Positions 3 through 14,971 of a DNA stretch of 20,000 nucleotides are shown one piece after another; positions within the stretch are counted from its first letter, which is position 1, and each line of letters begins with the position of its first letter. Source of the DNA: an uncultured virus (IMG/VR IMGVR_UViG_3300031269_000004) (Duplodnaviria > Heunggongvirae > Uroviricota > Caudoviricetes). The stretch lies in IMG/VR virus record IMGVR_UViG_3300031269_000004; one strand, given 5' to 3'. The notes under the pieces are model-generated. The model had not been told where the DNA came from. It saw only the letters and a program-made list of their open reading frames with translations, and did no database searches. A program made the position numbers and the translations under genes.

Positions 3-3000
3 GCTAATGCTGAAGAGTTAAAATTGTTTACTCAACACTTACATGCTATTTTACCCACTTGCAAAAGAGTCATCATCATACCTGGGAATCACGATGTTAG
101 ACAAAGAGGTATTGCACTAACGACTAGCACAGAAAAAAGAAACTTAACCGATGCTATTGATCTTGCTGTTACTGCAGTAAAGTCACCTAAAATATCATAT
201 TACCAAAAAACCGGACTCTACGAGGACACTACTTTTGACATTACCTGGGCAGTTTGGTCACAATGGACCAAGCATAGTATGGCTGACGTAAAACCAGCAT
301 ATAGCCCTTGGGTAGACAATGACATTAAGTCAGTAAAAACATCTTCTGTTATTGAATTGTTTCACGATCCAGTTATGGGTTGCAAACACTTTGACGGTCA
401 ACCTAGTAAGCATTTCGAAAATTACAAAATTACGATGGCAGACTTTCAGGCACCAACAGTACTTGCTGGTGATATTCATGCACCTGACATTGTTAGAGAC
501 GGTGACAAGACATTTACATATTGTAGTTCACTAGTACAGCGTAATTTTGGTGAAGGTGACTATTACGATGGTCACAAATTGACAGTAAAGGGTAACTGTC
601 AGCATGGCTACAACATTTTGACTTTTGATACTGACATTAACCGGGTTGTTGATATTGAATTTTTTAGTCTTAATCAGGTTGTTAGTAGGCATACGATATA
701 CCTGTCTGACAAGTTTGATTATGAAACTATGACTGCATTACTAAGTATTGAGGCTACAGAACTAAATAAGATTAGACTGGTTTGCAAATCTGGCCTTAGT
801 GAATTTACTAAAAATGAAGAGGCCCTAGTTCGACACTTTAAGTCTAAGTATACTTGCTCTGTTGAAACAGACTGGGCCAAAGATGTCCTTAGTGTTGAGG
901 TTGATACTACGGAATATGCTGACTTATCACAAATAGTTGATAAGGACAAAATGCTAAAGATTTCAAAAAAGTACATAGACACTATTGTTAAACAGTCAAC
1001 AACAATTGAAACAGAAGATCGTGAAGCATCAGCAGCAATGATATATGAAATGTTTGAAGAACAATTGCTTGCTGCAGACTTGACTAACAAAAAATTAAGC
1101 ATTGACATTATCGGCGGTACTGTTAGTAACTTTATGTCATTTACAAAAGATGTACAAATACGATTTGGTAATGCACCAATTACTAAGATAACGGGGGCCA
1201 ATGGTGTTGGCAAAACAAAACTGTTTGACTTTTTAAAATGGATGACTAAAGATCAAATAAGTAGTAGTCAAAATCTAAGAAACAAACGATATAACTACGC
1301 CCTGTATTTTAATGATCATTCAGAAGCTGACACTGTTAGTGGTGAACTTAAGTTTATTGTTAACGGTAAACCACACAAATTGGTTAAGACGTTAACCCGT
1401 TCTTGGAAAAAAGGCAAAAAAGACATATTTGCTAAAAATTGGATAGACAACCTATCTGGTACGCCAACGATGTCATTAACCCTAACTTCGTCTAACCTTA
1501 CAACTGATAACACACAAGAAGTTGTGGAATACATGGACAGTTTATTTACTTTTCAAGAGTTAGAGCAACTTGTATTCATTAACAGCTTTTCTTTCGATCG
1601 TCTAATTAATATGAAGCCTGAAGACTTGTCTGCTAGATTCTTAAACATTATTGGTCTTGATGCAATGACAGACCTACTGGGTCAAATAGAAGATGTTAAG
1701 GCTGCAAAGCTTGGTCCGTTGGCTAAACCTGCAATGACAGTAAATCAAATTGTCGAACAAATAGCACAGATTGAAACCAAAGCTCAAACTTTAGAGCATG
1801 ATACCAAGGCCAAGCGGTCAGAAGCAGAGGCAATTGAGACAGAGGTAGACGCGAAGACTAAAGACACAAACGGGTTACGTTCTAAACTGCATCAGGTAGA
1901 CAAGACGCACATTATAGACGCACAAATAGAAGTCATTAACGCAAATGTGGCAAGGCGACAGGATACAATTACTGAAAAACAGGCTCGTCTAGACCTCTTA
2001 CTGGCAACCAAAGATTCAATGTCAATTGACAAGTTAAAAGACGGTAGTCATGCCTTAGAACTTAAACTTGTTAACGCTAGGCATAAGGTAGAACAAAGTG
2101 AACAAAGGGCAGAGTCAATAAGGCAAACTATTGATGCTAAAAAGTCTGATGCAGTACTAATAGTTAAAGACGTTACGTTTGAGTTAAATAGTGAAATAGC
2201 AATACAAGAAAAGTCAATTTCAGCAAAGAGAGAATTAATACTAGAACTTAAAGGCAAAAAGTCAGCCCACGTGGCTTCTTGGTTAAATGAAGTACAGCGT
2301 AGCAAAAATGCAGTTGATGAATTACTCAACAAGTCTATTACAGTTGGCTCAGGTCTTAATGATGCACTGTCAGCAATAAAAATTGTAGCCGCAGAAGTCG
2401 CAATGGCAAAAAAGACAATTACTGAAAAGATAGAACGTGCAGAAAAAAAGGTTGCTGACTTAGTAACATCTAAGGTTTGCCTAACCTGTAAGCAAACAAA
2501 ATCAAAAAGTGCACAAGAGGCAATTGACAAACAAATAGTAACAGTAAAGAAGTCAATAGTAGACCAAGAAGCAGAAATGCTATTGCTAGGCGGAAAGGTT
2601 GACACCATAAAGGCAGATTGGTCACAGTGTCAGACAAAGATTGAACTAAACAAAGCCATACAGGCAGAGCATAACAAAGAGTCGATAAAGCTTAAAGCCT
2701 TACTTTTAGGTGAAACAGTACCTAATATTTCAGAATGGCAACAGGCTTTTGCAATGGGTCAGGCAATAACAAAGGAGTTAGCAGACCAAAGTGAACAGCT
2801 AGAGACTCTTACTGCTGAAGTTGTTCACTTTGGTGCAGAACTAGGTGCAAAACTTAAGCAACACGATCGTGTTATTGAAGCAAAGTCACAAATAGTAAAG
2901 GTTACTCAAGAACTTGAAGAGCACAAGGGGTCAGAGGCCTTGCTAAAACAGGCAGTTATAGACATTAAGATTGATATGGCTAAAATTGAAGCCAAGCTTG

Positions 3001-3803
3001 CAGAACTAGCCACAATTGATGACAACATACAGGAACTTAATGATGCGGTTAAGCTTCACTTGGTAGACAATGAAAAAGAAAGGGGTACACAACAACTGCT
3101 TACACAAAGGCTAAGATGGTCAATAGAAAATAAAGAAACACAATTAAAGATAGACACGCAAGACAGGTTGCTAGGTGACATGAAAGAACAGGCAAGGTCA
3201 GTTAATGAAACACTAGCCGCATTCGCGCAAGAAAAGGCATCAGGTATTCAACAGGTTGAAATACTTAACGGCAAAATAGGAGAAGTTAGACAATGGAGAC
3301 TAGTTGAATCAAGTCTTAAATTGTATAAACGACTGCTTGGTAAACATGGCCTGCCTCAGTACATATTTGCACATATTGTTGGTCTAATTAATACTAAGCT
3401 AAACGAAAGCCTTGAAGGCGTAGACTTTAGACTACAATTCGATCAAGACACATTGGAGCTTAAATTTATCGATCTTAAGCAAGATGTTATGAGACCAGTA
3501 CAATTTGTATCAGGTATGCAAACGACAGTCATAGCCCTGGCCTTGATTAATATTATGAGGCAGTTAAACGGTAGCAAACAATTTAATGTCTTAATGATTG
3601 ATGAAATATCTGGTAAGCTAAACGACGGCAAAGACCTTACATACGAGGCAAGAAATTACAAAGAATTGGTTCAGCAATTTATAGCAACTATTAGTAAGGG
3701 CTGCCAGGTTGTCATTGTTGACCACACGCTAACATTTAAGGACTCTAAGGTTATAGAAGTCTTTCCTGACACAGGCGGTTCAAACTTAAAATACAGAAAA
3801 TAA
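3..3803 (+). CDS. Mre11/SbcD nuclease - Rad50/SbcC ATPase fusion (gp47/gp46-like), 5'-truncated by window edge
   Basis: Metallophosphoesterase motifs GNHD, FHD and GDIH, followed by Walker A GANGVGKT, a long coiled coil with zinc hook CLTC, signature-like VSGMQ, Walker B VLMIDE and H-loop VDH. The frame is open upstream of TTG 24 to the window edge (ANAEELKLF), so the true start lies outside the window. Confidence 0.9.
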   Translation, partial: ANAEELKLFTQHLHAILPTCKRVIIIPGNHDVRQRGIALTTSTEKRNLTDAIDLAVTAVKSPKISYYQKTGLYEDTTFDITWAVWSQWTKHSMADVKPAYSPWVDNDIKSVKTSSVIELFHDPVMGCKHFDGQPSKHFENYKITMADFQAPTVLAGDIHAPDIVRDGDKTFTYCSSLVQRNFGEGDYYDGHKLTVKGNCQHGYNILTFDTDINRVVDIEFFSLNQVVSRHTIYLSDKFDYETMTALLSIEATELNKIRLVCKSGLSEFTKNEEALVRHFKSKYTCSVETDWAKDVLSVEVDTTEYADLSQIVDKDKMLKISKKYIDTIVKQSTTIETEDREASAAMIYEMFEEQLLAADLTNKKLSIDIIGGTVSNFMSFTKDVQIRFGNAPITKITGANGVGKTKLFDFLKWMTKDQISSSQNLRNKRYNYALYFNDHSEADTVSGELKFIVNGKPHKLVKTLTRSWKKGKKDIFAKNWIDNLSGTPTMSLTLTSSNLTTDNTQEVVEYMDSLFTFQELEQLVFINSFSFDRLINMKPEDLSARFLNIIGLDAMTDLLGQIEDVKAAKLGPLAKPAMTVNQIVEQIAQIETKAQTLEHDTKAKRSEAEAIETEVDAKTKDTNGLRSKLHQVDKTHIIDAQIEVINANVARRQDTITEKQARLDLLLATKDSMSIDKLKDGSHALELKLVNARHKVEQSEQRAESIRQTIDAKKSDAVLIVKDVTFELNSEIAIQEKSISAKRELILELKGKKSAHVASWLNEVQRSKNAVDELLNKSITVGSGLNDALSAIKIVAAEVAMAKKTITEKIERAEKKVADLVTSKVCLTCKQTKSKSAQEAIDKQIVTVKKSIVDQEAEMLLLGGKVDTIKADWSQCQTKIELNKAIQAEHNKESIKLKALLLGETVPNISEWQQAFAMGQAITKELADQSEQLETLTAEVVHFGAELGAKLKQHDRVIEAKSQIVKVTQELEEHKGSEALLKQAVIDIKIDMAKIEAKLAELATIDDNIQELNDAVKLHLVDNEKERGTQQLLTQRLRWSIENKETQLKIDTQDRLLGDMKEQARSVNETLAAFAQEKASGIQQVEILNGKIGEVRQWRLVESSLKLYKRLLGKHGLPQYIFAHIVGLINTKLNESLEGVDFRLQFDQDTLELKFIDLKQDVMRPVQFVSGMQTTVIALALINIMRQLNGSKQFNVLMIDEISGKLNDGKDLTYEARNYKELVQQFIATISKGCQVVIVDHTLTFKDSKVIEVFPDTGGSNLKYRK

Positions 3804-4125: not shown

Positions 4126-4192
4126 TGAGCTAGCATAAAAACTTTACGTTATTTCATTCTTGTATACATATAATCTAAACTAAGCATAAAGG

Positions 4193-5245
4193 ATGAAAAG
4201 TATAACTTCATACATTAACGAAAAATTGGCTACACAAGATGTTGATGCTACCCGTTTTCCGAACGGCGGCAAAACTGATCGTGACTTTTTCAGCAAGGGT
4301 CAACGAGATGGTAACAAGGTCGATGACATTGTTAAGACAGTAAAAGTTAAAATATCAGCAAAAGAGCTTCTTGCTTCACAAGATGCTGTTTACTTAGGTA
4401 AATCTTTAAGCATGGCGATTGGTGGTGTTTCTGGTGGTGATCTTGGCAGTATTGTTAGTAAAGAAAATCGTATACTAGACGGTCACCATAGATGGGCTGC
4501 TACGATGTTTAATAATCCTAATGCAATACTAGATGTTAGCAAAGCTAACATGACAATTGGTGATCTTATACCAGTACTTCGTGCAGCTGGTGACAATTAT
4601 GGTAACAAAAGAGGCAACGATCAGGTTTCTGGTGACCTTAACGTATTTAAGGCGACAGTTTCAGATATTGAAGACAGCATTTACAAAGGTAAAGGCATGG
4701 ATGTTGCATTTTACAACCAACAAAAAGCAATTGATTGGTACGAAAGCATTGGTGCCAGTACTATATCAAAAAGACTTTCTATGCTACAAGCTGCAAAGCC
4801 TCCAGTTGGTGCACCGGCCCGAAAGGACATGCCAAAAATAGAACCAGAACAAGTTGATAAAGTTACTAAGTCAATGTCCAATGGTGATATTGATATTAGA
4901 GACCCTTATGTTGCTGAATCAAAAAATAACAAAAAGAAAAAGAAAACTATAAAATCATTAAGCACACATATCACCGAATCATTAGTTAACGAGGCTAGTG
5001 AAATGGTATCAGGTTGGCCTAGATATTACAACAAAAAGTCATCTCAAACGTTTGTATTGACAAAGTTACAAAATGATCGAGCTACGTATATGGCATACTT
5101 TCGTGGTTATGAAACAGATGGCCCTGTAATATTTAACAGTGTACAAGAGCTACATAAATTTGAAGCAGGCACAAACGTCTCAAGACAACAGGCAGAAACA
5201 TATCGATTTAGTAAAGAAATAGCATTACCTGAAGCAATAAAATAA
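4193..5245 (+). CDS. ParB/Srx-like domain protein with N-terminal leader MKSITSYINE, fused in frame to a second leader-bearing cassette from 4949
   Basis: SQD and ILDGHHRWAA are ParB/Srx N-terminal motifs. Internal IKSLSTHITESLVNE at 4949 follows a Lys-rich linker encoded by an A-rich spacer-like sequence. Confidence 0.8.
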   Translation: MKSITSYINEKLATQDVDATRFPNGGKTDRDFFSKGQRDGNKVDDIVKTVKVKISAKELLASQDAVYLGKSLSMAIGGVSGGDLGSIVSKENRILDGHHRWAATMFNNPNAILDVSKANMTIGDLIPVLRAAGDNYGNKRGNDQVSGDLNVFKATVSDIEDSIYKGKGMDVAFYNQQKAIDWYESIGASTISKRLSMLQAAKPPVGAPARKDMPKIEPEQVDKVTKSMSNGDIDIRDPYVAESKNNKKKKKTIKSLSTHITESLVNEASEMVSGWPRYYNKKSSQTFVLTKLQNDRATYMAYFRGYETDGPVIFNSVQELHKFEAGTNVSRQQAETYRFSKEIALPEAIK

Positions 5246-5262
5246 CACACAAAAAAACAACT

Positions 5263-5712
5263 ATGAAATCATTAAGCGCACACATTACAGAATCATTTAG
5301 TTTCAGCAAGGTTACGGCTCCAAACTATGAAAAATGGTTATCAGATAACCCGGCTGGTCTTGACAATAAAAACGACCCTAAATATATGAATGCTGGTCGC
5401 TGGTTATCACACACTTTAGAAATTGTTTGGCGAACTGACGAAATACAGGCTGCTGCAGATTTATATAAATTAGCTATTGTTTCTTTTCCAGAGTTTAAAC
5501 AAATTAGCGCTTCGGATCGTAAGCACTTCGACACAATAGTCGGTTGTATAATGACGCAAGAGACTGATGATTCTGACCTAGCAGGCTACATGAAAGCATT
5601 GCCACAACAAGCAAAGACTTACATTAAAGATCAGCAAGGTTCACCAGTAGGTGATGACAGTATGTTTGACTACGGTTTAGAATGGTTTTGTATGTCCGTA
5701 CTTAACATGTAA
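5263..5712 (+). CDS. Leader-bearing hypothetical protein (MKSLSAHITESF), putative capsid-internal protein
   Basis: Conserved leader followed by a unique body; function is inferred from the leader only. Confidence 0.85.
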   Translation: MKSLSAHITESFSFSKVTAPNYEKWLSDNPAGLDNKNDPKYMNAGRWLSHTLEIVWRTDEIQAAADLYKLAIVSFPEFKQISASDRKHFDTIVGCIMTQETDDSDLAGYMKALPQQAKTYIKDQQGSPVGDDSMFDYGLEWFCMSVLNM

Positions 5713-5730
5713 TAACACACAAAAACAACT

Positions 5731-6087
5731 ATGAAATCATTAAGCACACATATTACAGAATCATTCGGCGGTTTGCTAAACGAAATGAAAGACGATAATT
5801 TTACAGAAGCACAGAACGGTAATCCTACACATAATTTTAAAGTATACAAAGAGATCATACAAGTTTATCCACATATGCAAAGTATTATAGAAGATAGTTT
5901 TAAAGTAGGTAGCCCAGACTATAGTATACATGGTATATGGGATGCAGGTAAGCAAATCGTTTTTTATTTTGATAGATCATGTGGTATTAGTTTTAAAAGA
6001 CTAGGTAATGACTTGGCAAAGCATAACGTAAGTTTTCAATTACCTGGTAACACTGATTATAACTTTAACATATCAATAGATAAATGA
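5731..6087 (+). CDS. Leader-bearing hypothetical protein (MKSLSTHITESFGGLLNE), putative capsid-internal protein
   Basis: Conserved leader followed by a unique body. Confidence 0.85.
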   Translation: MKSLSTHITESFGGLLNEMKDDNFTEAQNGNPTHNFKVYKEIIQVYPHMQSIIEDSFKVGSPDYSIHGIWDAGKQIVFYFDRSCGISFKRLGNDLAKHNVSFQLPGNTDYNFNISIDK

Positions 6088-6104
6088 CACAAATAAAAAC
6101 AACT

Positions 6105-6428
6105 ATGAAATCATTAAGCACACATATTACAGAATCATTTGTCAACGAGTCAAATAGCATGTTTGCTGTTATGTTAACAGGAGGCTCTATAGGCGACAAG
6201 CCAAGACCGTCAAACGCTAGGGAATTTAAGGGCATGCCGGTACCAAAAGATGAACAGCTGTTCAGTAAGGAAGACGCCACGGCGAAAGCAAAAAGAATGA
6301 ATAAATCAATGTCGCCCGGAGAACGTAAGCACTATCGTTTAAAATACGTTGTTGTACCAGTTAACGGCAACCTGTTTGAATCTGATAGCAGTAGGACTGT
6401 TGTTCTAAGTTCTGGTTTTAAGGAATAA
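6105..6428 (+). CDS. Leader-bearing basic hypothetical protein (MKSLSTHITESFVNE), putative capsid-internal protein
   Basis: Start moved from 6084 to the ATG at 6105 because it sits in the conserved aaaaacaact-ATG repeat context. Confidence 0.85.
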   Translation: MKSLSTHITESFVNESNSMFAVMLTGGSIGDKPRPSNAREFKGMPVPKDEQLFSKEDATAKAKRMNKSMSPGERKHYRLKYVVVPVNGNLFESDSSRTVVLSSGFKE

Positions 6429-6446
6429 AAAACAAAATGAAAAAAT

Positions 6447-7046
6447 ATGAAATCATTAAGCACCCACATTACAGAATCATTCGTCAACGAAGCTGTCCAA
6501 GATGTCAAGTCAGCAGCCAAAAGTGGATTTGATTTAGTCATTACTAAAGACTTAAGAGAAGGCACAGACTTTAAAGAAATCTCAGAAGAAGACTTCGACA
6601 GATATGATGAAGTAGTCGTTAGCCCTAATCCATTTGGTGTTGTACCTACTATCATTGAAAAAGGAACAGTAGTTAAAAATGTAAAACCGCAAGGCAATTA
6701 TATAATGGGTGAATTGTTTGCTGTCTCTAGTAGAAATGGTCGAAATAAATTCGTTGGTAATATTACGTTGACGTTAGATTCTATATCGATACTTAAAATA
6801 CCTGAACCAGTTAGAGGTATTAGCGCTTTAGATATTAGCAAGGCCTTGTATGACGCTGTAGTGTATACAAGTTTTATCGTAACAGACGGTGACAACACTA
6901 TTGGATTTGCTCTAGGTCGTGGTTACGATGACGAAATGGCAGATAAGATCATTGCGGCCCTATCTCAGTTTGGGAATAAGTTAAACATACAAATAGGCGC
7001 GAGTGCCGGCGGTGATAAGGGCTCCGAATGTGTCTACTATAGCTAA
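6447..7046 (+). CDS. Leader-bearing hypothetical protein (MKSLSTHITESFVNE), putative capsid-internal protein
   Basis: Conserved leader, 199 aa, unique body with an acidic patch (EISEEDFDRYDE). Confidence 0.85.
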   Translation: MKSLSTHITESFVNEAVQDVKSAAKSGFDLVITKDLREGTDFKEISEEDFDRYDEVVVSPNPFGVVPTIIEKGTVVKNVKPQGNYIMGELFAVSSRNGRNKFVGNITLTLDSISILKIPEPVRGISALDISKALYDAVVYTSFIVTDGDNTIGFALGRGYDDEMADKIIAALSQFGNKLNIQIGASAGGDKGSECVYYS

Positions 7047-7091
7047 ACAAAAAAGAACAAAAAAGAACAAAAAATAACAAAAAAAAAAAAG
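7046..7091 (+). repeat. Intergenic 10-bp tandem repeat (aacaaaaaag) x~4 ending in a 12-A tract
   Basis: aacaaaaaag aacaaaaaag aacaaaaaat aacaaaaaaaaaaaag, read directly from the sequence. Confidence 0.85.
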
Positions 7092-7097
7092 AAAACT

Positions 7098-7502
7098 ATG
7101 AAATCATTAAGCACACACATTACAGAATCGTTTCAAATTGATGAAGCAGGGCAAGAGATTATCAATCTCTATGTCTATACTGAAATGATTAACATTATGC
7201 GTCCAGGTCAAACTAAACCGACAGGACGTAAACCTGTTAGCATTGCTATTGTACCGATCACGTCTAATAACAAACGTAATCTTGCCAGTTTTGTTAAGCA
7301 AGACAAAAAAGGTGGTGCAGAATCCATAATTATTAAAGATTTGGACAAGGCAGGACAAGAATTAGCAGACTTTGCTAAACGATTCCCTAATCTCAAAATT
7401 GATCCACGAGATACTTTGCAACTAGATAATACTACGCTATATAGCATCGACGATAATGTCATACAAGACATAAAGTCAACTATTGATAAAGTCAACTATT
7501 GA
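7098..7502 (+). CDS. Leader-bearing hypothetical protein (MKSLSTHITESFQIDE), putative capsid-internal protein
   Basis: Conserved leader; the stop codon is produced inside a 16-bp tandem duplication. Confidence 0.85.
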   Translation: MKSLSTHITESFQIDEAGQEIINLYVYTEMINIMRPGQTKPTGRKPVSIAIVPITSNNKRNLASFVKQDKKGGAESIIIKDLDKAGQELADFAKRFPNLKIDPRDTLQLDNTTLYSIDDNVIQDIKSTIDKVNY

Positions 7503-7533: not shown

Positions 7534-8010
7534 ATGAAATCATTAAGTAAACACCTTACAGAGACCTTGGCGACAACCGTTAACGAGTCTGACATTCTTG
7601 GCAATCGTTTTACAATAATGCCACATGAATGGCGTACATTTGTTAAAATAGCCAAGGCAACAAACAGGTCTTTGAGAACAGTTACCGACAGTGGCCTTGA
7701 TATTTTATTAAGTATTAAGACAAAACAGGCGGTTGCAAAATGGGACGAAGAGACACTTGAACTGTGGACTGATATGTCAAAGTCTGACTTTCAGGCAATA
7801 ATATCAGGCAGGGCTAAACAGTCAGGGCGTTGGTTGCAAGACCCGGTAACAGAAGCGGTAACAGAAGGCATAGGTCAAGGTGACACAGTGACTGTAAAGA
7901 TGGGTAAATGGTCAGGCCAAAGTGGCACAGTTACACTAATATTAAAAGACAGTTACATGCTTGATTTACAAGATGGCAATAGTGTAGAAGTCAAAAATTC
8001 AGAAATTTAA
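7534..8010 (+). CDS. Leader-bearing protein (MKSLSKHLTE) with C-terminal KOW-like domain
   Basis: Start moved to the ATG at 7534 (aaaacaact-ATG context). C-terminal GDTVTVKMGKWSGQSGTV fits the KOW motif, preceded by a 12-bp duplication encoding VTEAVTEG. Confidence 0.8.
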   Translation: MKSLSKHLTETLATTVNESDILGNRFTIMPHEWRTFVKIAKATNRSLRTVTDSGLDILLSIKTKQAVAKWDEETLELWTDMSKSDFQAIISGRAKQSGRWLQDPVTEAVTEGIGQGDTVTVKMGKWSGQSGTVTLILKDSYMLDLQDGNSVEVKNSEI

Positions 8011-8019
8011 GCAAATGCT

Positions 8020-8057
8020 GCAACGGTGCATATATTTTATGCATCGTTGTTTAATTT
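8020..8057 (+). terminator. Probable intrinsic terminator closing the leader-gene array
   Basis: Hairpin CAACGGTGCATA-tattt-TATGCATCGTTG (one G-U pair) followed by a T-rich tail, about 10 nt after the last array gene. Confidence 0.65.
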
Positions 8058-8087
8058 AATTATACAACTAAAAAAATTACACAATTT

Positions 8088-8324
8088 ATGCCTAAATCAA
8101 AGCACCGTAAAGGATTCAAAGCGAAAGCAAACAAACTTAAATCTACTCAGCTTGCACAAAAAAAGCAAGACGCACATAACCTCAAACGTCGAGTTAACAA
8201 GATTATGCTTGAAGAGGAACAACGAAAGCAGCTTGCGAAAAAGGCTCAACGAGACACCCAGCTTAGTGTGCTGAATGATGCAGAAGACAACAAGACTATG
8301 ACGTCTAAGTTGTTAGAACCATAA
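8088..8324 (+). CDS. Small basic hypothetical protein
   Basis: Lys/Arg-rich ORF (MPKSKHRKGFKAK) after an A-rich leader; packs tightly against the next gene. Confidence 0.7.
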   Translation: MPKSKHRKGFKAKANKLKSTQLAQKKQDAHNLKRRVNKIMLEEEQRKQLAKKAQRDTQLSVLNDAEDNKTMTSKLLEP

Positions 8325-8334
8325 CACAAACAGC

Positions 8335-9105
8335 ATGCAAAGAAATTCAACATTATTTCAAGAGCTTAAACGAACAGGTTGGGACAACAGAACGGCTTGG
8401 CAAAATGCCCATCCAGACCAAAAGCTATTGTCTACGTATGCAATTAACAAAGCACTACAAGAGCCAAAAGATTGGGATGCAATAGCACTAAAATGTTCAA
8501 ATAATCCTAATCATGAAATGTTTGGTCTTACAGTTGAAGCAATCAGACTTGAATGGTCGTCGAGAGGCAAAAAAGGACAAAATCGCGGACTAAAGTTAGA
8601 GGACTACATTGACTCAAAATTGGCACACGGTGGTCAAGTAGACATCGCAGGTATTGAAGACCCCAAACTATTGTCAAAAATGGGTCACTTTGACAACCTA
8701 TATGATACTGTGCTTAGCCGCATGCATTCTTGGATTGGCACAGAGATTTGGCTAACATCTAAAGTGCTAGGTCTTAGCGTTCGATGTGACAGCCTGTTCC
8801 TAGCGAAAGACAGCCCACAAATTTGTCTTATTGCTGAATGGAAAAACACAGAAAGTATTGCAACCTCGAACAGATTTGAGAAACTTATCGGCCCAGCATC
8901 ACACCTTGATGATTGCGAATGGGTTAACTATACAATACAGTTTCAAATTTATCAATACATACTTCTAGAATATGGTATATTTGACGAGATTATAGCTCGA
9001 TGCTTTCAATTTAAGACAACGGGCTATGAAACATTAGGTCCCGCATTTGATTTTGATCCTACTTTTATTGAAGCAATCGTTAACTTTACAAGAATAGAAA
9101 AATGA
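8335..9105 (+). CDS. PD-(D/E)XK superfamily exonuclease
   Basis: RG..(L)E helix, TEIWL, RCDSLF, IAEWKN and YTIQFQIYQY follow the RecB/lambda-exonuclease-like E...D...(D/E)xK...QxxxY pattern. Confidence 0.8.
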   Translation: MQRNSTLFQELKRTGWDNRTAWQNAHPDQKLLSTYAINKALQEPKDWDAIALKCSNNPNHEMFGLTVEAIRLEWSSRGKKGQNRGLKLEDYIDSKLAHGGQVDIAGIEDPKLLSKMGHFDNLYDTVLSRMHSWIGTEIWLTSKVLGLSVRCDSLFLAKDSPQICLIAEWKNTESIATSNRFEKLIGPASHLDDCEWVNYTIQFQIYQYILLEYGIFDEIIARCFQFKTTGYETLGPAFDFDPTFIEAIVNFTRIEK

Positions 9106-9644
9106 AAAACTTACTTTGTGTACCTATTAATGGTATGGCCGGTTCGGGCAAAGACACCTTTGCAGCAATGGCAGCAGAACACGTTGAGTCAATTGGCGCA
9201 GACATAGTAGTACATAATGTGTCATCAGTAGACCGGGTTAAACAGGCAGCACGCTTACTAGGGTGGCATGGTGATAAGGACAACAAGTCTAGGCAGTTCT
9301 TGTCTGACATAAAAGACCTTGCAACAGCGTACAGTAACAGCCCATTTAAGTATATGACAGGCCACGTTGAACGTGCCAACAGGGCAATAGTATTTCTACA
9401 TATTAGAGAGCCAGAAGAAATTACAGCAATAGTGGAATGGTGCAAGACGCATATGATACATTGCCAAACTTTAAAGATATCACGTACTTCAGTTGACATC
9501 GTTGACAATAATACAGGAGACGTTGGCTCTACTTTACCTTACGACTATGACATACAGGTCAACAACAACTTGGCACTAGCTGAACTTAGACTAGCAGCTG
9601 AAGAGGTTGTAAACACCTGGATAGAAAAATACAAACTTACATGA
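9102..9644 (+). CDS. Deoxynucleoside monophosphate kinase-like P-loop protein
   Basis: N-terminal INGMAGSGKDT P-loop, VKQAA..LGW, SRQFL and HIREPEEI, as in phage dNMP kinases. Confidence 0.7.
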   Translation: MKNLLCVPINGMAGSGKDTFAAMAAEHVESIGADIVVHNVSSVDRVKQAARLLGWHGDKDNKSRQFLSDIKDLATAYSNSPFKYMTGHVERANRAIVFLHIREPEEITAIVEWCKTHMIHCQTLKISRTSVDIVDNNTGDVGSTLPYDYDIQVNNNLALAELRLAAEEVVNTWIEKYKLT

Positions 9645-10189
9645 CAAAAGTACAAGAAAATAAACTGTTAATTGAATTTGAATTACTAAAATTGTCACAG
9701 CTAGGCATTAAAAATTGTACAGGTCAACACTACGAGTTGTGTACTATTGACGCCGCACAACTTTGTATTTCAATTACATCTGTACGCGGTCAAAATATGT
9801 GGTACGAGACGTACAGGTTCTTTGACGGCAAAAAAACAGGTCTGTACAAACAAAAAGTATGGGGCTTGCAATTAGCAAACATAGTAGAAGACTTTGTATC
9901 TTTGCTTTCTGAACACGAAATAAAAACGGCTACCAATATTTTACTAAAACGAAAGACTGCAACAGCAACAAAGGCTAAGACTGATACTAGCACAATGGCT
10001 CAATCTTCAAAGAGACCAACAAAGTACAAAAGAAATACAAGAGGCCAAACTTCACCAAAAGAGCCATTGCTGCAACAAACAAAAGACAGTACAGGTCTAA
10101 CTAGACCTAGCAACCAAAAAGAGAGGGACCAGGCTAAACTTGAACGTAAACTATTTAGCAACCCAAAAATGTGGACGTTTAGCCTATAG
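9641..10189 (+). CDS. Hypothetical protein with basic low-complexity C-terminal half
   Basis: ATGA overlap with the upstream gene; no recognised domain. Confidence 0.7.
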   Translation: MTKVQENKLLIEFELLKLSQLGIKNCTGQHYELCTIDAAQLCISITSVRGQNMWYETYRFFDGKKTGLYKQKVWGLQLANIVEDFVSLLSEHEIKTATNILLKRKTATATKAKTDTSTMAQSSKRPTKYKRNTRGQTSPKEPLLQQTKDSTGLTRPSNQKERDQAKLERKLFSNPKMWTFSL

Positions 10190-10424: not shown

Positions 10425-10498
10425 TGTTAACAAGTTATTGAAAAGTTAACAAATTAAGGTGTCATTTATGCACTAATTGTTATATATTTATATAACAA
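10425..10498 (+). promoter_or_regulatory. Conserved promoter/operator element, copy 1
   Basis: TGTTAACAAGTT...TGTCAT...TAA followed by the palindrome TTGTTATATA-TT-TATATAACAA (10477-10498), 21 nt before ATG 10520. Confidence 0.8.
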
Positions 10499-10519
10499 TA
10501 AAAAACTAATACATCTATT

Positions 10520-11268: not shown

Positions 11269-11592
11269 ATGAATTCACTTAGCAAACACATAAACGAATC
11301 TTTCAGACCGCAAAATAACATTAAGATTGACAGCTTAAGTTTAGCAAACGGTCTGAAAAAGAGTGACTTTGGTGACTTAGTCACTAGCATACAAGACCTA
11401 AAGCTAGGAGACAGCATAATTATAGTAAACAGATCAGACAACGAATGGCGAGATCAGGTTGAATTTTTAGGTGATTCTGGTAATGCTGTCCAATTATTGT
11501 TTACTTATGGTGGCAATAATGAAAAGGTGAAAATAAGATACAGTTGGTTCTTAGAAGACATTAGTCTTGGTTTCGTATACAAAAAGAAATAA
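11269..11592 (+). CDS. Leader-bearing protein (MNSLSKHINESF), paralog of 11889
   Basis: Leader plus a body that aligns by eye with 11889: GL.K..FG..VTS...L..GD..I.V...EWR...EFLG.S....Q.L. Confidence 0.85.
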   Translation: MNSLSKHINESFRPQNNIKIDSLSLANGLKKSDFGDLVTSIQDLKLGDSIIIVNRSDNEWRDQVEFLGDSGNAVQLLFTYGGNNEKVKIRYSWFLEDISLGFVYKKK

Positions 11593-11758: not shown

Positions 11759-11914
11759 ATGGAACACGTAATAAATTGCAATCACGACTTTCCGCTTAGA
11801 GTTAAAAACTTTTTATTTTGGCAGTGTCCTAACTGCAATGCAATAAAGTCTAGATTTTTTTGGTCAAAACATAAAAGAAAACAAAATAATGAAGTCACTA
11901 AGCAGTCACATTAA
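11759..11914 (+). CDS. Small putative zinc-ribbon protein (51 aa)
   Basis: Translated by hand: MEHVINCNHDFPLRVKNFLFWQCPNCNAIKSRFFWSKHKRKQNNEVTKQSH, with a CxH...CxxC pattern. Confidence 0.55.
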   Translation: MEHVINCNHDFPLRVKNFLFWQCPNCNAIKSRFFWSKHKRKQNNEVTKQSH

Positions 11915-12197
11915 CGAATCATTTGAGGCCATCGATCTAGACGGAATGAGCATAGGCCCTGGCCTAACCAAGGGGCAATTTGGTCAACCTGTTACCAGTC
12001 ATGTCCAGTTACAAATGGGTGATAAACTAATTGTTGTTGACAAGGGCGAATGGCGAAACAGCTTTGAATTTTTAGGCTACAGTGAAGGCATTATTCAGTT
12101 TTTAGACTATCTTGGCACAAAGAAAGAAAAGATAACTATGGGGCTGTCAAAGTTTCAGTCTGCCATTGAGGCCGGCCACGTCAGGAGAGAGTTGTAA
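11889..12197 (+). CDS. Leader-bearing protein (MKSLSSHINESF), paralog of 11269
   Basis: Leader plus the body motifs shared with 11269. Confidence 0.85.
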   Translation: MKSLSSHINESFEAIDLDGMSIGPGLTKGQFGQPVTSHVQLQMGDKLIVVDKGEWRNSFEFLGYSEGIIQFLDYLGTKKEKITMGLSKFQSAIEAGHVRREL

Positions 12198-12735: not shown

Positions 12736-13785
12736 ATGTCACAATCAGACTACAAGGCTAAAGTTGATCTATACTATATAGCAAAAGATGCATATTATCA
12801 AGGAGAAGCTATTATATCAGATGATGAATTTGACTCTTTAGAAGATGAACTTATAGAACAAGGTTTTGATCCAACGGTTGGTTACCAAGAGGTATCAACA
12901 GAAAGAAAGGTTAAGCATGGCCATCGAATGTTAAGTCTTTCTAAGACTAAAGTGGAAACAAATGGTATGTCAAATGAAACTGCACAGGCCTTATTTGATC
13001 GTATTGGTCCAGGCCAACTCAGTTGGAAATATGATGGTGTTGCAATTGAAGCCAGTTACAAAATGGGTAAACTAGAAATGGTTTCCACCAGAGGTGATGG
13101 CAACATGGGTGTTAATGTCCATGCAAAATTGGCTTCATTATTTCCACAATGTATTGGTTACAAAGACCATGTTGGTATTCGTTTTGAAATGGTTATGAAT
13201 CAAAGAGTATTCGAAAGTAAATATTCAGATAAGTATTCACACTCTAGAAATCTGGTTGCTGGCATAGTTAATGACATTAACAAAGATGATGTTAGAAAAC
13301 ATGATCTTATACCAATTATGTTAGAGTCTGTTACACCAACTGGTGAAATATTAGACTTAGACATGTTTCCTGAATTTACCTGTAAAGAAATAACCAATTG
13401 CACCACCCCGGACCAATTAGTAACATCATTTGCCAGTATGGCACAAAGACGTAAAGAGTACCAATTTGGTACAGATGGTATTGTTTTTAACACAATAGGT
13501 GTCAAAAAGGTATTACATAACGGTACATATCCTAAGCATGCAGTTGCTATTAAATTTAAGGCACCAACTATGCAGTCAACCGTTACTGATATTAAATGGA
13601 ATATGAATAAGACAGGAAGATGGACCCCAGTAGTTTATTTTATGCCAATCATAGTTGATGGTAGAAAAATACAAAGAGCATCAGGTCATCACCTTCAATA
13701 CCTGGTTGTTAACGATATCCAAATTGGATCAAATGTTACAGTTACACTGGCTAATGACATAATCCCAATGATCAAAAAAGCATAA
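12736..13785 (+). CDS. ligA: NAD-dependent DNA ligase, N-terminal part (Ia + adenylation + OB domains)
   Basis: AYY..(I)SDDEFD, HRMLSL, catalytic KYDG, STRGDG, RNLVAG, DGIV, AIKF, GRWTPV and DIIP; the ORF stops right after the OB fold. Confidence 0.92.
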   Translation: MSQSDYKAKVDLYYIAKDAYYQGEAIISDDEFDSLEDELIEQGFDPTVGYQEVSTERKVKHGHRMLSLSKTKVETNGMSNETAQALFDRIGPGQLSWKYDGVAIEASYKMGKLEMVSTRGDGNMGVNVHAKLASLFPQCIGYKDHVGIRFEMVMNQRVFESKYSDKYSHSRNLVAGIVNDINKDDVRKHDLIPIMLESVTPTGEILDLDMFPEFTCKEITNCTTPDQLVTSFASMAQRRKEYQFGTDGIVFNTIGVKKVLHNGTYPKHAVAIKFKAPTMQSTVTDIKWNMNKTGRWTPVVYFMPIIVDGRKIQRASGHHLQYLVVNDIQIGSNVTVTLANDIIPMIKKA

Positions 13786-13787
13786 CT

Positions 13788-14078
13788 ATGGAACACACAT
13801 CAATCATGTTACATTTTACAGAACAAGAAATGCAATTGTACCTGACTAAACGAGACTACAGAATTGTTATGACACAGCTTAGCATTTGGTGCCCAGGCGA
13901 ACTGGGCTATCCAGACGTCATAAAAACAAAATGTGTACCTGTACTTTACTATGATTGTGGTACCAGTAATGAAATTGAAGTATTCCATCCAGCAACAATG
14001 ACGCAAGGTTCACACCAAGAACTAATCACAGCAACATTTACAAAAGAACTAAAAAAGACTTTATTGTTAATAACTTAG
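13788..14078 (+). CDS. Hypothetical protein lying between the two ligase halves
   Basis: Starts 2 nt after the ligase N-half stop; no homing endonuclease motif seen. Confidence 0.7.
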   Translation: MEHTSIMLHFTEQEMQLYLTKRDYRIVMTQLSIWCPGELGYPDVIKTKCVPVLYYDCGTSNEIEVFHPATMTQGSHQELITATFTKELKKTLLLIT

Positions 14079-14127
14079 TGACCAATTAGTGTCATATAAC
14101 AATTAATTGTTATATATTTATATAACA
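14065..14127 (+). promoter_or_regulatory. Conserved promoter/operator element, copy 3 (upstream of ligase C-half)
   Basis: TGTTAATAACTT (14065), TGTCAT (14090) and the palindrome TGTTATATA-TT-TATATAACA (14108-14127), 16 nt before ATG 14144. Confidence 0.8.
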
Positions 14128-14143
14128 CCAATAAATAAATATT

Positions 14144-14971
14144 ATGCTTCAAGAGATACCAGAACCAACAGATATTGCAAGAATTGCAGGTAAAGACATT
14201 ACATATGCACAACTTAGGTCTAATTTTAACTTACCAGAAATGGCAATAGTTAAAGGTTGCAATGCAATGGTTATTGATGATGGTCAAGCAATGCAAAGAC
14301 TACAATTTTATCATTTTATGGCATGCTTCCCAATACGAGGCTTTAGCGGTAAATCATTTAAGCGATTAATGCAAGTTGATACATTACTACAAAGTCCAAT
14401 AGGTTTTTTCGATCCTGTAATTGTAAATGCAAAAGTATTGAATGAGGTTGGCTTTGGACCAAGACAAACAGAATTACTGCTACATGGCATACTAAAATGG
14501 AGAACAAAAGGCTTTGAACTATTTAGAATCATTAGGTCACTAGGCATTAATAATTGTGGTAACCGAATTGCAAAAGAATGGTCTAAGAAACTAGCAGGTA
14601 TTGGTTACAATTTCGATAGTATGGCAGGCAAAGTACTCGAAGAATTAGAAAATTCAGACCATCGTATTAACAACATGCAAATGAGGTTACGTAATATGGG
14701 TTACACTATACACTTGCCAGTGGAAGACACGGCACCAGCTGCCAATACTGTAAAGTTTTTAATGACTGGTTCACCAAAAAGTTTTGGTTACAAAACAAAG
14801 GCCTTGTTTAAGTCTGAACTGGTAACATGGCTTGAGGTTGACAAGCTTAAAGATGCACAGGTACTGATTACAGATAACCTACAATCTACATCATCAAAAA
14901 TGAAACAAGCCAAGTCACTTGGTATTGAAACAATAACATACGGCATGGCTGTATTAAAAGCAAAGGCATAA
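14144..14971 (+). CDS. NAD-dependent DNA ligase, C-terminal part (HhH repeats + BRCT)
   Basis: HhH-like segments IRGFSGKS, GFGPRQ and SLGINNCGNRIAK; C-terminal BRCT-like FLMTGS...LITD....SSKMKQAKSLGIETITY. Confidence 0.82.
   Translation: MLQEIPEPTDIARIAGKDITYAQLRSNFNLPEMAIVKGCNAMVIDDGQAMQRLQFYHFMACFPIRGFSGKSFKRLMQVDTLLQSPIGFFDPVIVNAKVLNEVGFGPRQTELLLHGILKWRTKGFELFRIIRSLGINNCGNRIAKEWSKKLAGIGYNFDSMAGKVLEELENSDHRINNMQMRLRNMGYTIHLPVEDTAPAANTVKFLMTGSPKSFGYKTKALFKSELVTWLEVDKLKDAQVLITDNLQSTSSKMKQAKSLGIETITYGMAVLKAKA

Follow-up and report, generated by a model that had tools for sequence, protein, structure and literature searches.

A phage open reading frame that probably represents a natural in-frame fusion of two T4-type head-cargo cassettes across an apparent former spacer

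IPI, IPII and IPIII, which are internal proteins of phage T4, together with Alt, carry a capsid-targeting sequence (CTS), a short N-terminal propeptide that is common to unrelated small proteins from variable loci and is removed by the prohead protease gp21 (PMC9026906, PMC3012670, PMC12373910). In IPIII, the first 10 residues are described as sufficient for head targeting, with residues 4 and 7 being of importance to targeting and residues 8 and 10 to processing, and engineered C-terminal fusions to IPIII were packaged and processed (PMC9026906). Ip1, Ip2 and Ip3 are each reported to block a different GmrSD enzyme (PMC12373910). A related arrangement was found in the IMG/VR record IMGVR_UViG_3300031269_000004 of an uncultured salt-lake tailed phage (Caudoviricetes), from which a stretch of 20,000 nucleotides, referred to as the window, was analysed; it corresponds to the minus strand of a virus contig of 49,826 bases with a CheckV completeness of 22%. 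The open reading frame (ORF) at 4193-5245 of the window is probably a natural in-frame fusion of two T4-type internal-head-protein cargo cassettes, loaded by its leader and probably cut by a gp21-type protease.

Several described systems share parts of this arrangement. As in the T4 internal proteins, a short N-terminal peptide is common here to unrelated small proteins and ends in a hydrophobic-x-Glu at residues 8-10, and homologues of the ParB-like part of the ORF bear T4-like leaders. Different from T4, two leader units lie in one frame with the second leader inside the chain, and in place of three Ips at least 13 leader genes are carried on the contig. The expression-packaging-processing fusions to IPIII or its CTS by Black and co-workers resemble the proposed mechanism in that the head takes up the cargo and processing follows (PMC9026906). 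They are bench constructs, whereas the one reported here is natural and spacer-derived, and has kept inside the chain a second leader that probably serves as a place for cutting. Polyvalent proteins (Iyer et al. 2017), which include DdrB-like ParB/Srx domains in the phage P1 head, place several unrelated effector domains in one chain delivered with the DNA, have ParB/Srx-type cargo and are in some cases proteolytically processed (PMC5512222). They are described as large, with 2-15 domains and often a zincin-like peptidase of their own (PMC5512222), whereas ORF 4193-5245 combines two small unrelated units, joined by a candidate head-targeting leader, in one chain whose delivery is suggested by its leader; Pfam and PHROG scans detected no peptidase domain within it, and the cut is expected from a prohead protease. 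In phiKZ, 201phi2-1 and SPN3US, a Glu-specific head protease cuts chains of ejection or inner-body proteins at more than one site, as proposed here; the motif of these giant-phage cargo proteins is A/S/G-x-E, their propeptides are long, and neither an array sharing a 10-residue leader nor a spacer-derived linker is described in the parts of that source drawn on (PMC5694885). CTS cargo arrays and engineered CTS fusions are already known. No description of natural in-frame CTS-cassette fusions was found in the literature searched, as far as the portions consulted extend, and an earlier description elsewhere is possible. The present case adds a spacer that is still recognisable, a change from ATG to ATA for which another lineage offers an independent parallel, and a tally of switches within one cargo family.

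The fused ORF encodes 350 amino acids followed by a stop codon (5243-5245), and is stop-free from the ParB/Srx-like domain through a linker into a leader copy and its cassette (Table 1). The ATA at 4949-4951 is codon 253 and lies in frame. The DNA at the joint, ...gtt gct gaa tca aaa aat aac aaa aag aaa aag aaa act ATA aaa tca tta agc aca cat atc acc gaa tca..., translates to YVAESKNNKKKKKTIKSLSTHITESLVNEAS; the protein across the joint of domain, linker and leader reads YVAESKNNKKKKKTIKSLSTHITESLVNEASEMVS, and ESKNNKKKKKTIK is the stretch that bridges the joint in an uncut chain. An earlier note on this DNA had described a ParB-like ORF running on through a spacer-like linker into a leader whose own start codon is ATA in place of ATG, and the letters and frames bear this out.

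Table 1. Features of the fused ORF and of the leader-bearing array. Positions are those of the window unless another contig is named.
Feature	Position	Strand	Basis
Fused ORF: leader / ParB/Srx-like domain / linker / internal leader / C-terminal cassette	4193..5245	+	translation; identical protein P0001 on 5 contigs
Leader at the N-terminus, MKSITSYINE, with I-N-E at residues 8-10; candidate capsid-targeting sequence	4193..4222	+	codons 1-10; 16.3 bits against leader profile
ParB/Srx-like domain, residues 11-242, ending PYVAE	4223..4918	+	427 homologues; invariant D96 G97 H98 H99 R100
Linker SKNNKKKKKT, 10 A-rich codons, former spacer now translated	4919..4948	+	near-copy of true spacer 7068-7097
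TAA lying out of frame (frame +2 relative to the ORF) within the spacer repeat unit CAAAAAATAA	4927..4929	+	frame arithmetic
Internal leader IKSLSTHITE, first codon ATA (4949-4951) instead of ATG	4949..4978	+	15.8 bits against leader profile
C-terminal cassette body S263-K350, 88 residues, no homologue detected	4979..5242	+	open frame
Leader-bearing cassette	5263..5712	+	leader profile and DNA pattern
Leader-bearing cassette, of the family fused to the ParB-like domain in P0087	5731..6087	+	leader profile and DNA pattern
Leader-bearing cassette	6105..6428	+	leader profile and DNA pattern
Leader-bearing cassette	6447..7046	+	leader profile and DNA pattern
True intergenic spacer, paralogous to the linker	7047..7097	+	three tandem 10-nt units (CAAAAAAGAA twice, then CAAAAAATAA), then A12-G-AAAACT
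Leader-bearing cassette MKSLSTHITES..., directly after the true spacer	7098..7502	+	leader profile and DNA pattern
Leader-bearing cassette MKSLSKHLTET	7534..8010	+	leader profile
Leader-bearing cassette MNSLSKHINES	11269..11592	+	leader profile
Leader-bearing cassette MKSLSSHINES	11889..12197	+	leader profile
Leader genes MKSLKSYINE, MKSLSTHITE, MKALSKHLTE, MKSLRVRLNE	L015 (contig upstream of the window) 9341-9706, 8843-9292, 7569-8828, 5214-5804	minus	adjoin nrdA and nrdB

Judged by its letters, the linker is a former intergenic spacer. The true spacer at 7068-7097 reads c-A6-taa-c-A12-g-aaaa-ct in front of the ATG of gene 7098, and the linker at 4920-4948 reads c-A6-taa-c-A5-g-A5-g-aaaa-ct in front of the ATA. 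A 16-mer from the first half of the linker is found exactly only at 4920 and 7068 in the window, with two more copies at one mismatch within the spacer 7047-7097 (0.03 matches expected; four matches in 0 of 200 shuffles), and a 14-mer from the second half exactly only at 4937 and 7086 (0.09 expected). The remaining spacers of the array belong to another type (...TAA-CACACAAAAACAACT-ATG). Because both halves match exactly only at these places and the other spacers are of a different type, the linker and the spacer 7068-7097 are specifically related, beyond A-richness. The likeness to a true intergenic spacer had been pointed out before and is upheld, with the coordinates corrected from 7071-7100 to 7068-7097.

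It had also been remarked that one extra A in the run of six would restore the TAA at 4927-4929 as a stop. The arithmetic is right; the historical event was probably another one, as it is the second run that differs. The first A-run is six long in both copies, and the difference in length lies in the second run, with 11 positions in the linker and 12 in the spacer. Read in the KNNKKKK frame, the true spacer continues with ENYEIIKHT..., out of register with the leader, and then meets stops (TKNNKKKKENYEIIKHTHYRIVSN, followed by two stop codons). For these two reasons the frame-joining base more likely came from the second A-run than from a lost seventh A in the first, and loss of one base from the long spacer run (12 to 11 positions) most likely joined the frames, as far as DNA of such low complexity allows the alignment to be read. 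In the fused copy a G now interrupts the second run. Under this path the TAA at 4927-4929 would never have been the stop of the ParB-like gene, just as gene 6447-7046 does not stop at the paralogous TAA (7075-7077) but already ends upstream of it, at 7044-7046.

A homopolymer-rich joint beside a repeated leader is hard for assemblers, and the evidence consists of contigs, so that a true sequence with a stop and an ATG, keeping the two genes separate, has to be considered. Such a sequencing or assembly error is very unlikely, in agreement with the earlier note. The same letters stand in a second IMG/VR contig from another metagenome (L008), which is 99.98% identical over 11,242 nt with two mismatches and has an identical junction. 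Logan contigs of the runs X1, X2 and X4 each span 4150-5720 in one piece with 0 differences, and the run X5, which is not flagged as a source, yields a 285-nt contig over 4874-5158, again with 0 differences; no indel or alternative letter at 4150-5720 was seen in the contigs of these four salt-lake metagenome runs. Partial contigs mapping only on the repeated leader or spacer derive from other cassettes and are uninformative on the junction 4911-4995. The exact 350-residue protein (P0001) is recorded from five contigs, and a contig of 146,775 nt carries the identical protein. Moreover, an error would have to produce two separate differences, in the run length and in the ATA, and the internal leader carries two private synonymous changes, because of which it is not a mis-assembled neighbour copy. 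The only position that differs between the window and the contig is 19228.

The joint could also be read as a recoding signal. A -1 slip at A-AAA-AAT (4921-4927) into AAA AAA TAA, or stuttering of RNA polymerase, would yield a short protein next to the fusion, like tau and gamma of dnaX, and in favour of this a -1 shift at 4921-4927 meets the TAA at once in a region rich in A-runs. However, no stimulatory structure lies nearby: the dnaX type needs one within about 5-9 nt, and the sole hairpin starts 45 nt downstream. A run of six A is short for transcriptional slippage, and the 6-A-TAA unit is also present in the plain spacer at 7068-7077. Recoding is held to be highly improbable. The hairpin itself (4973-5007, directly behind the internal leader) is predicted at -11.5 kcal/mol with a z-score of -2.97, and 1 of 200 shuffles was as stable; it covers a GAGG at 4991-4994 and the start of an in-frame ATG at 5003-5005. 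These two elements raise the idea that the C-terminal part is also made alone, either from the ATA at 4949 or from this ATG (Met271, with the GAGG 8 nt upstream). ATA serves very poorly for initiation, and translation from Met271 would give a protein devoid of the leader. The GAGG, which lies within the hairpin, is formed by the codons for Asn-Glu-Ala in the conserved VNE motif, and the other cassettes of the array have no Shine-Dalgarno sequence; internal initiation is given as little credence as recoding.

MKSLSTHITES or a close variant starts nine ORFs of the window (4193, 5263, 5731, 6105, 6447, 7098, 7534, 11269 and 11889), and with four further leader ORFs upstream on the contig the total is 13. 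When the whole contig was scanned in six frames with a profile of the 13 leaders, these scored 16-22.5 bits, and above 9 bits one more site was seen, at 4952 (15.8 bits), which is the internal copy; after it came a score of 8.7 bits. All 13 leaders, and the internal copy as well, show the triplet [IL][TN]E at residues 8-10, and a leader DNA pattern has six matches in the window against 0.00 expected. The cassette bodies behind the leaders have no common Pfam or PHROG family in the scans made. A leader with some other sorting, regulatory or recombination role, and a fusion unrelated to head loading or protease cutting, is quite improbable, if somewhat less so than recoding. No head genes lie on the contig, and conserved spacer-plus-leader DNA could persist mainly as a recombination site, which would suit such a role. 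Against it, the leaders are collinear with the T4-type leaders of homologues and invariably end in [IL][TN]E, close copies (5263-7098) differ by 2-4 synonymous versus 1-2 non-synonymous codons, which argues for selection on the peptide, and Peptidase_S77 is present in relatives. Among distant leader copies, non-synonymous changes are about as many as synonymous ones.

One of the four upstream leader genes on L015 encodes 420 residues. In the cassette at 6105, an in-frame ATG lies seven codons upstream (MTQIKTT-MKSLSTHITES) and overlaps the stop of the preceding gene (6084-6108); the start used there decides whether its leader is truly N-terminal.

Compared with the nearest leaders, the internal leader differs by ATG to ATA and by two synonymous changes (ATC and ACC) that are found in no other copy, so that its peptide is unchanged apart from Met to Ile. 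The frame from 4949 is stop-free for 98 codons at 35% G+C, as were 10 of 20000 shuffles, and the other five frames over this stretch contain 3-12 stops; the second cassette's frame is kept open. These observations speak against a reading in which the fusion is real and its downstream part a dying remnant, that is, frameshift read-through into a start-less cassette whose neutral tail is not necessarily cut off. In support of a remnant, the cassette is without a homologue and its predicted fold is of low confidence, and several homologues of the ParB-like protein (P0005, P0028, P0039 and P0053 among them) run a few residues into leader-like sequence and then stop, which indicates that accidental read-through occurs in the family. 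Besides the open frame and the intact leader peptide, an analogous fusion that stays in frame in three contigs about 5-8% apart (L021, L022 and L024) counts against it, and a dying remnant is unlikely, although it is the strongest of the alternatives.

Homologues of the ParB-like domain number 427 (E <= 0.001, among proteins of 192-613 residues), of which the best 120 were examined, the query included. Many of them start with a leader, for instance MKTFKSFIAE or MKSFKQYIAE. A T4-type leader motif of our own definition (hydrophobic-x-x-aromatic-hydrophobic-x-E) is present in the first ~20 residues of 81 out of 93 homologues that lack an N-extension. Taking a tail of more than 25 residues after the terminal Pro-Tyr (PY) as a C-extension and more than 20 residues as an N-extension, 64 of the best 120 stand alone, 29 are C-extended, 20 are extended at both ends and 7 are N-extended. 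The stand-alone homologues end 1-9 residues past PY. A leader-like motif lies within 45 residues of the terminal PY in 33 of the 49 C-extended homologues. As controls, 45-residue windows gave the motif in 0 of 480 cases within domain bodies and in 6 of 60 cases elsewhere in the tails; some of these six represent third cassettes. The first position of the internal leader is still Met in some (such as P0026, P0029 and P0043) and Leu, Val or Ile in others (such as P0015, LKNIQSFEEFILE); among the 16 C-extended homologues without the motif, several have a short [LIV]NE site followed by A, G or S directly after PY. In a quick maximum-likelihood tree of the domain alone, built from the best 120, 21 changes between C-fused and not C-fused were counted, and well-supported branches make at least 12 of these unavoidable; with labels shuffled, the mean was 38 changes, and 0 of 500 shuffles were as low as 21. 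The window's own sequence sits on a long branch of unsure placement.

Fusions equivalent to ORF 4193-5245 recur in relatives. In L021, L024 and L022, an ORF of 449-450 residues consists of a leader, a small unit, the ParB-like domain, the linker QKSNRT, an internal leader and a 140-residue unit. L021 and L024 read ...PYVKEQKSNRT-ATG-KALNEFLNE, and L022, 94.8% identical to L021 over the 1353-nt ORF, has ATA at that codon. Elsewhere the two genes are separate and nearly touching: in L042 and L061 a stand-alone ParB-like gene ends directly at the ATG of a leader gene (0-nt spacer), and stop loss there would give the linker-less fusions seen in other relatives; in L060 and L078 a 1-nt spacer separates such genes. 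The gene at 5731-6087, which stands alone here, matches the fused C-terminus of P0087 with 41% identity over 86 amino acids (E 1e-19), and the nearest fused relative, P0002, shows a KKKKKT linker in its protein sequence. Longer chains were met as well, with 741 residues in L009 (3390-5615), 1014 in L013 (4258-7302), 729 in L098 and 1438 in L101; all of these chains include leader-like or ESVNEA-type sites, the L009 chain having an internal leader and three ESVNEA sites, the ParB-like domain also lies within the long chains of L013, L098 and L101, and all four are candidates for large head-cargo polyproteins. The earlier note had asked for relatives with two separate genes and had named, as the opposite case, domains that are always fused without a spacer-like linker. 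Stand-alone ParB-like genes and fusions to other cassettes were both found, contrary to that opposite case, and in the databases searched no relative had the C-terminal cassette as a separate gene.

The label ParB-like, taken over from the same note, is less firmly grounded than stated there. DGHHR is invariant in the family, and an AlphaFold model has a predicted local distance difference test (pLDDT) score above 90 over most of residues 40-230. The top rows of a Foldseek search were ParB, Noc, pNOB8 ParB-N, sulfiredoxin and Atu1540, all weak (E 0.06-1), VIA-align gave weak alignments to ParB/Srx proteins (Z 4.0-4.6, root-mean-square deviation 3.1-5.7 A, 85-114 residues aligned, roughly residues 49-140 of the model), and the ESM Atlas offered weak ParB_N leads. 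On the other side, none of 65 family members matched Pfam ParB_N (PF02195) at E <= 0.1, the window protein had no match either, and a profile search of PDB sequences returned nothing below E 0.06 and no ParB. Membership of the upstream domain in the ParB/Srx superfamily is weakly supported by these models. With the homologue P0114 as query, tblastn matched 80 residues at 39-40% identity in Pseudomonas phage F116 and in six Pseudomonas phages related to it; two of those phages have the matched region annotated as a methyltransferase. A named phage collection contained no match to the locus at the nucleotide level or to the fused protein in a protein search, and thus no cultured close relative.

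The contig encodes NrdA, NrdB, a fused Mre11/Rad50-like ORF, a split NAD-dependent ligase, a helicase, part of a DNA polymerase and a baseplate protein. A Peptidase_S77 domain, the family of T4 gp21, was found in the contigs of two of five relatives searched, whose ParB-like part is 57% identical, at 45 bits and above the Pfam cut-off. Reasoning from T4, the leader MKSITSYINE would recruit the single chain into the prohead core, and a gp21-type prohead protease would then cut after the Glu of hydrophobic-x-Glu, at INE10 and ITE262 and perhaps at VAE242 and VNE267; the earlier note had proposed VAE|S, ITE|S or VNE|A as points where the head protease could separate the cassettes. The cuts would free the ParB/Srx-like protein and a protein of 83-88 residues with unassigned function, in equal numbers, for ejection with the DNA. 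The internal ATG, no longer needed, would have drifted to ATA. An anti-defence or DNA-directed role of the ejected parts is a reasonable guess only, made by analogy with T4 Ip1-3 (PMC12373910) and with the ParB/Srx domains of polyvalent proteins (PMC5512222) as far as these accounts go.

Several points weigh against a fusion of two head-loaded, protease-cut cassettes. No gene for a capsid, scaffold or protease was found on the 49.8-kb contig, itself 22% complete, and a gp21-type protease of the source phage is inferred from relatives. Cutting at an internally placed leader is a prediction by analogy, and V-A-E differs from the [IL]-x-E of the 13 leaders. Searches with the C-terminal cassette, over 1.84 billion representatives and over proteins 53-172 amino acids long, gave no homologue, its model has pLDDT below 50 for most of residues 271-350, and one thing, the open frame, suggests that it is a functional protein; its search of the ESM Atlas gave nothing above 0.78. 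The metagenome runs are DNA only and were compared as contigs, which drop rare variants; X1, X2 and X4 may represent the source samples, and the runs, salt-lake metagenomes throughout, date from a single year and perhaps from a single campaign.

Head-packaged injected proteins are a main anti-defence arsenal of T4-like phages, and the locus shows one concrete way in which such arsenals change: cassettes with a common leader and spacer can be joined by a single-base event, and the joint keeps an apparent head-protease site. The comparative data indicate that such fusion is common in marine and saline T4-like phages, with at least 12 switches among 120 relatives and chains of up to 1438 residues. 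If the predicted cutting is true, many long phage ORFs now called 'hypothetical' would be accounted for by natural leader-linked polyproteins, the calling of genes and the prediction of cargo would improve, and natural designs would be at hand for loading several proteins into phage heads at a fixed ratio. A wider proposal, speculative and rather unlikely as it stands, is that A-rich homopolymer spacers are slippage-prone switches that repeatedly make and break polyproteins by one-base changes, or by stop loss where a stop abuts an ATG. T4-like phages might thereby re-sort which cargo is loaded together and in what ratios, with the internal leader as a ready protease-cleavable joint and the G in the run as a lock on the fused state.

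Some further features of the contig were recorded. The T4 late-promoter motif TATAAATA has four matches against 2.08 expected, 0 of them upstream of the array, and is uninformative on expression timing. A conserved motif of ~50 nt (ATTTAACACTTTAAG...ACTAATTGTTATATATTTATATAACA) is present in about nine copies on the gene strand of the contig, including 10444-10499 and 14074-14129 of the window, and both of these lie in the gap directly 5' of an ORF (10520 and 14144); its appearance suggests a promoter, or a shuffling motif such as has been described for T4-like phages. The ORF at 3-3803, which starts upstream of the window, encodes about 1324 residues with an Mre11-like metallophosphoesterase N-terminus and an SMC/Rad50-like ATPase (phrog_35725, E 5e-186). 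The NAD-dependent DNA ligase appears to be split into 12736-13785, with the adenylation and OB domains, and 14144-14971, with the C-terminal part; these two are separated by an ORF of 96 residues together with one copy of the promoter-like motif.

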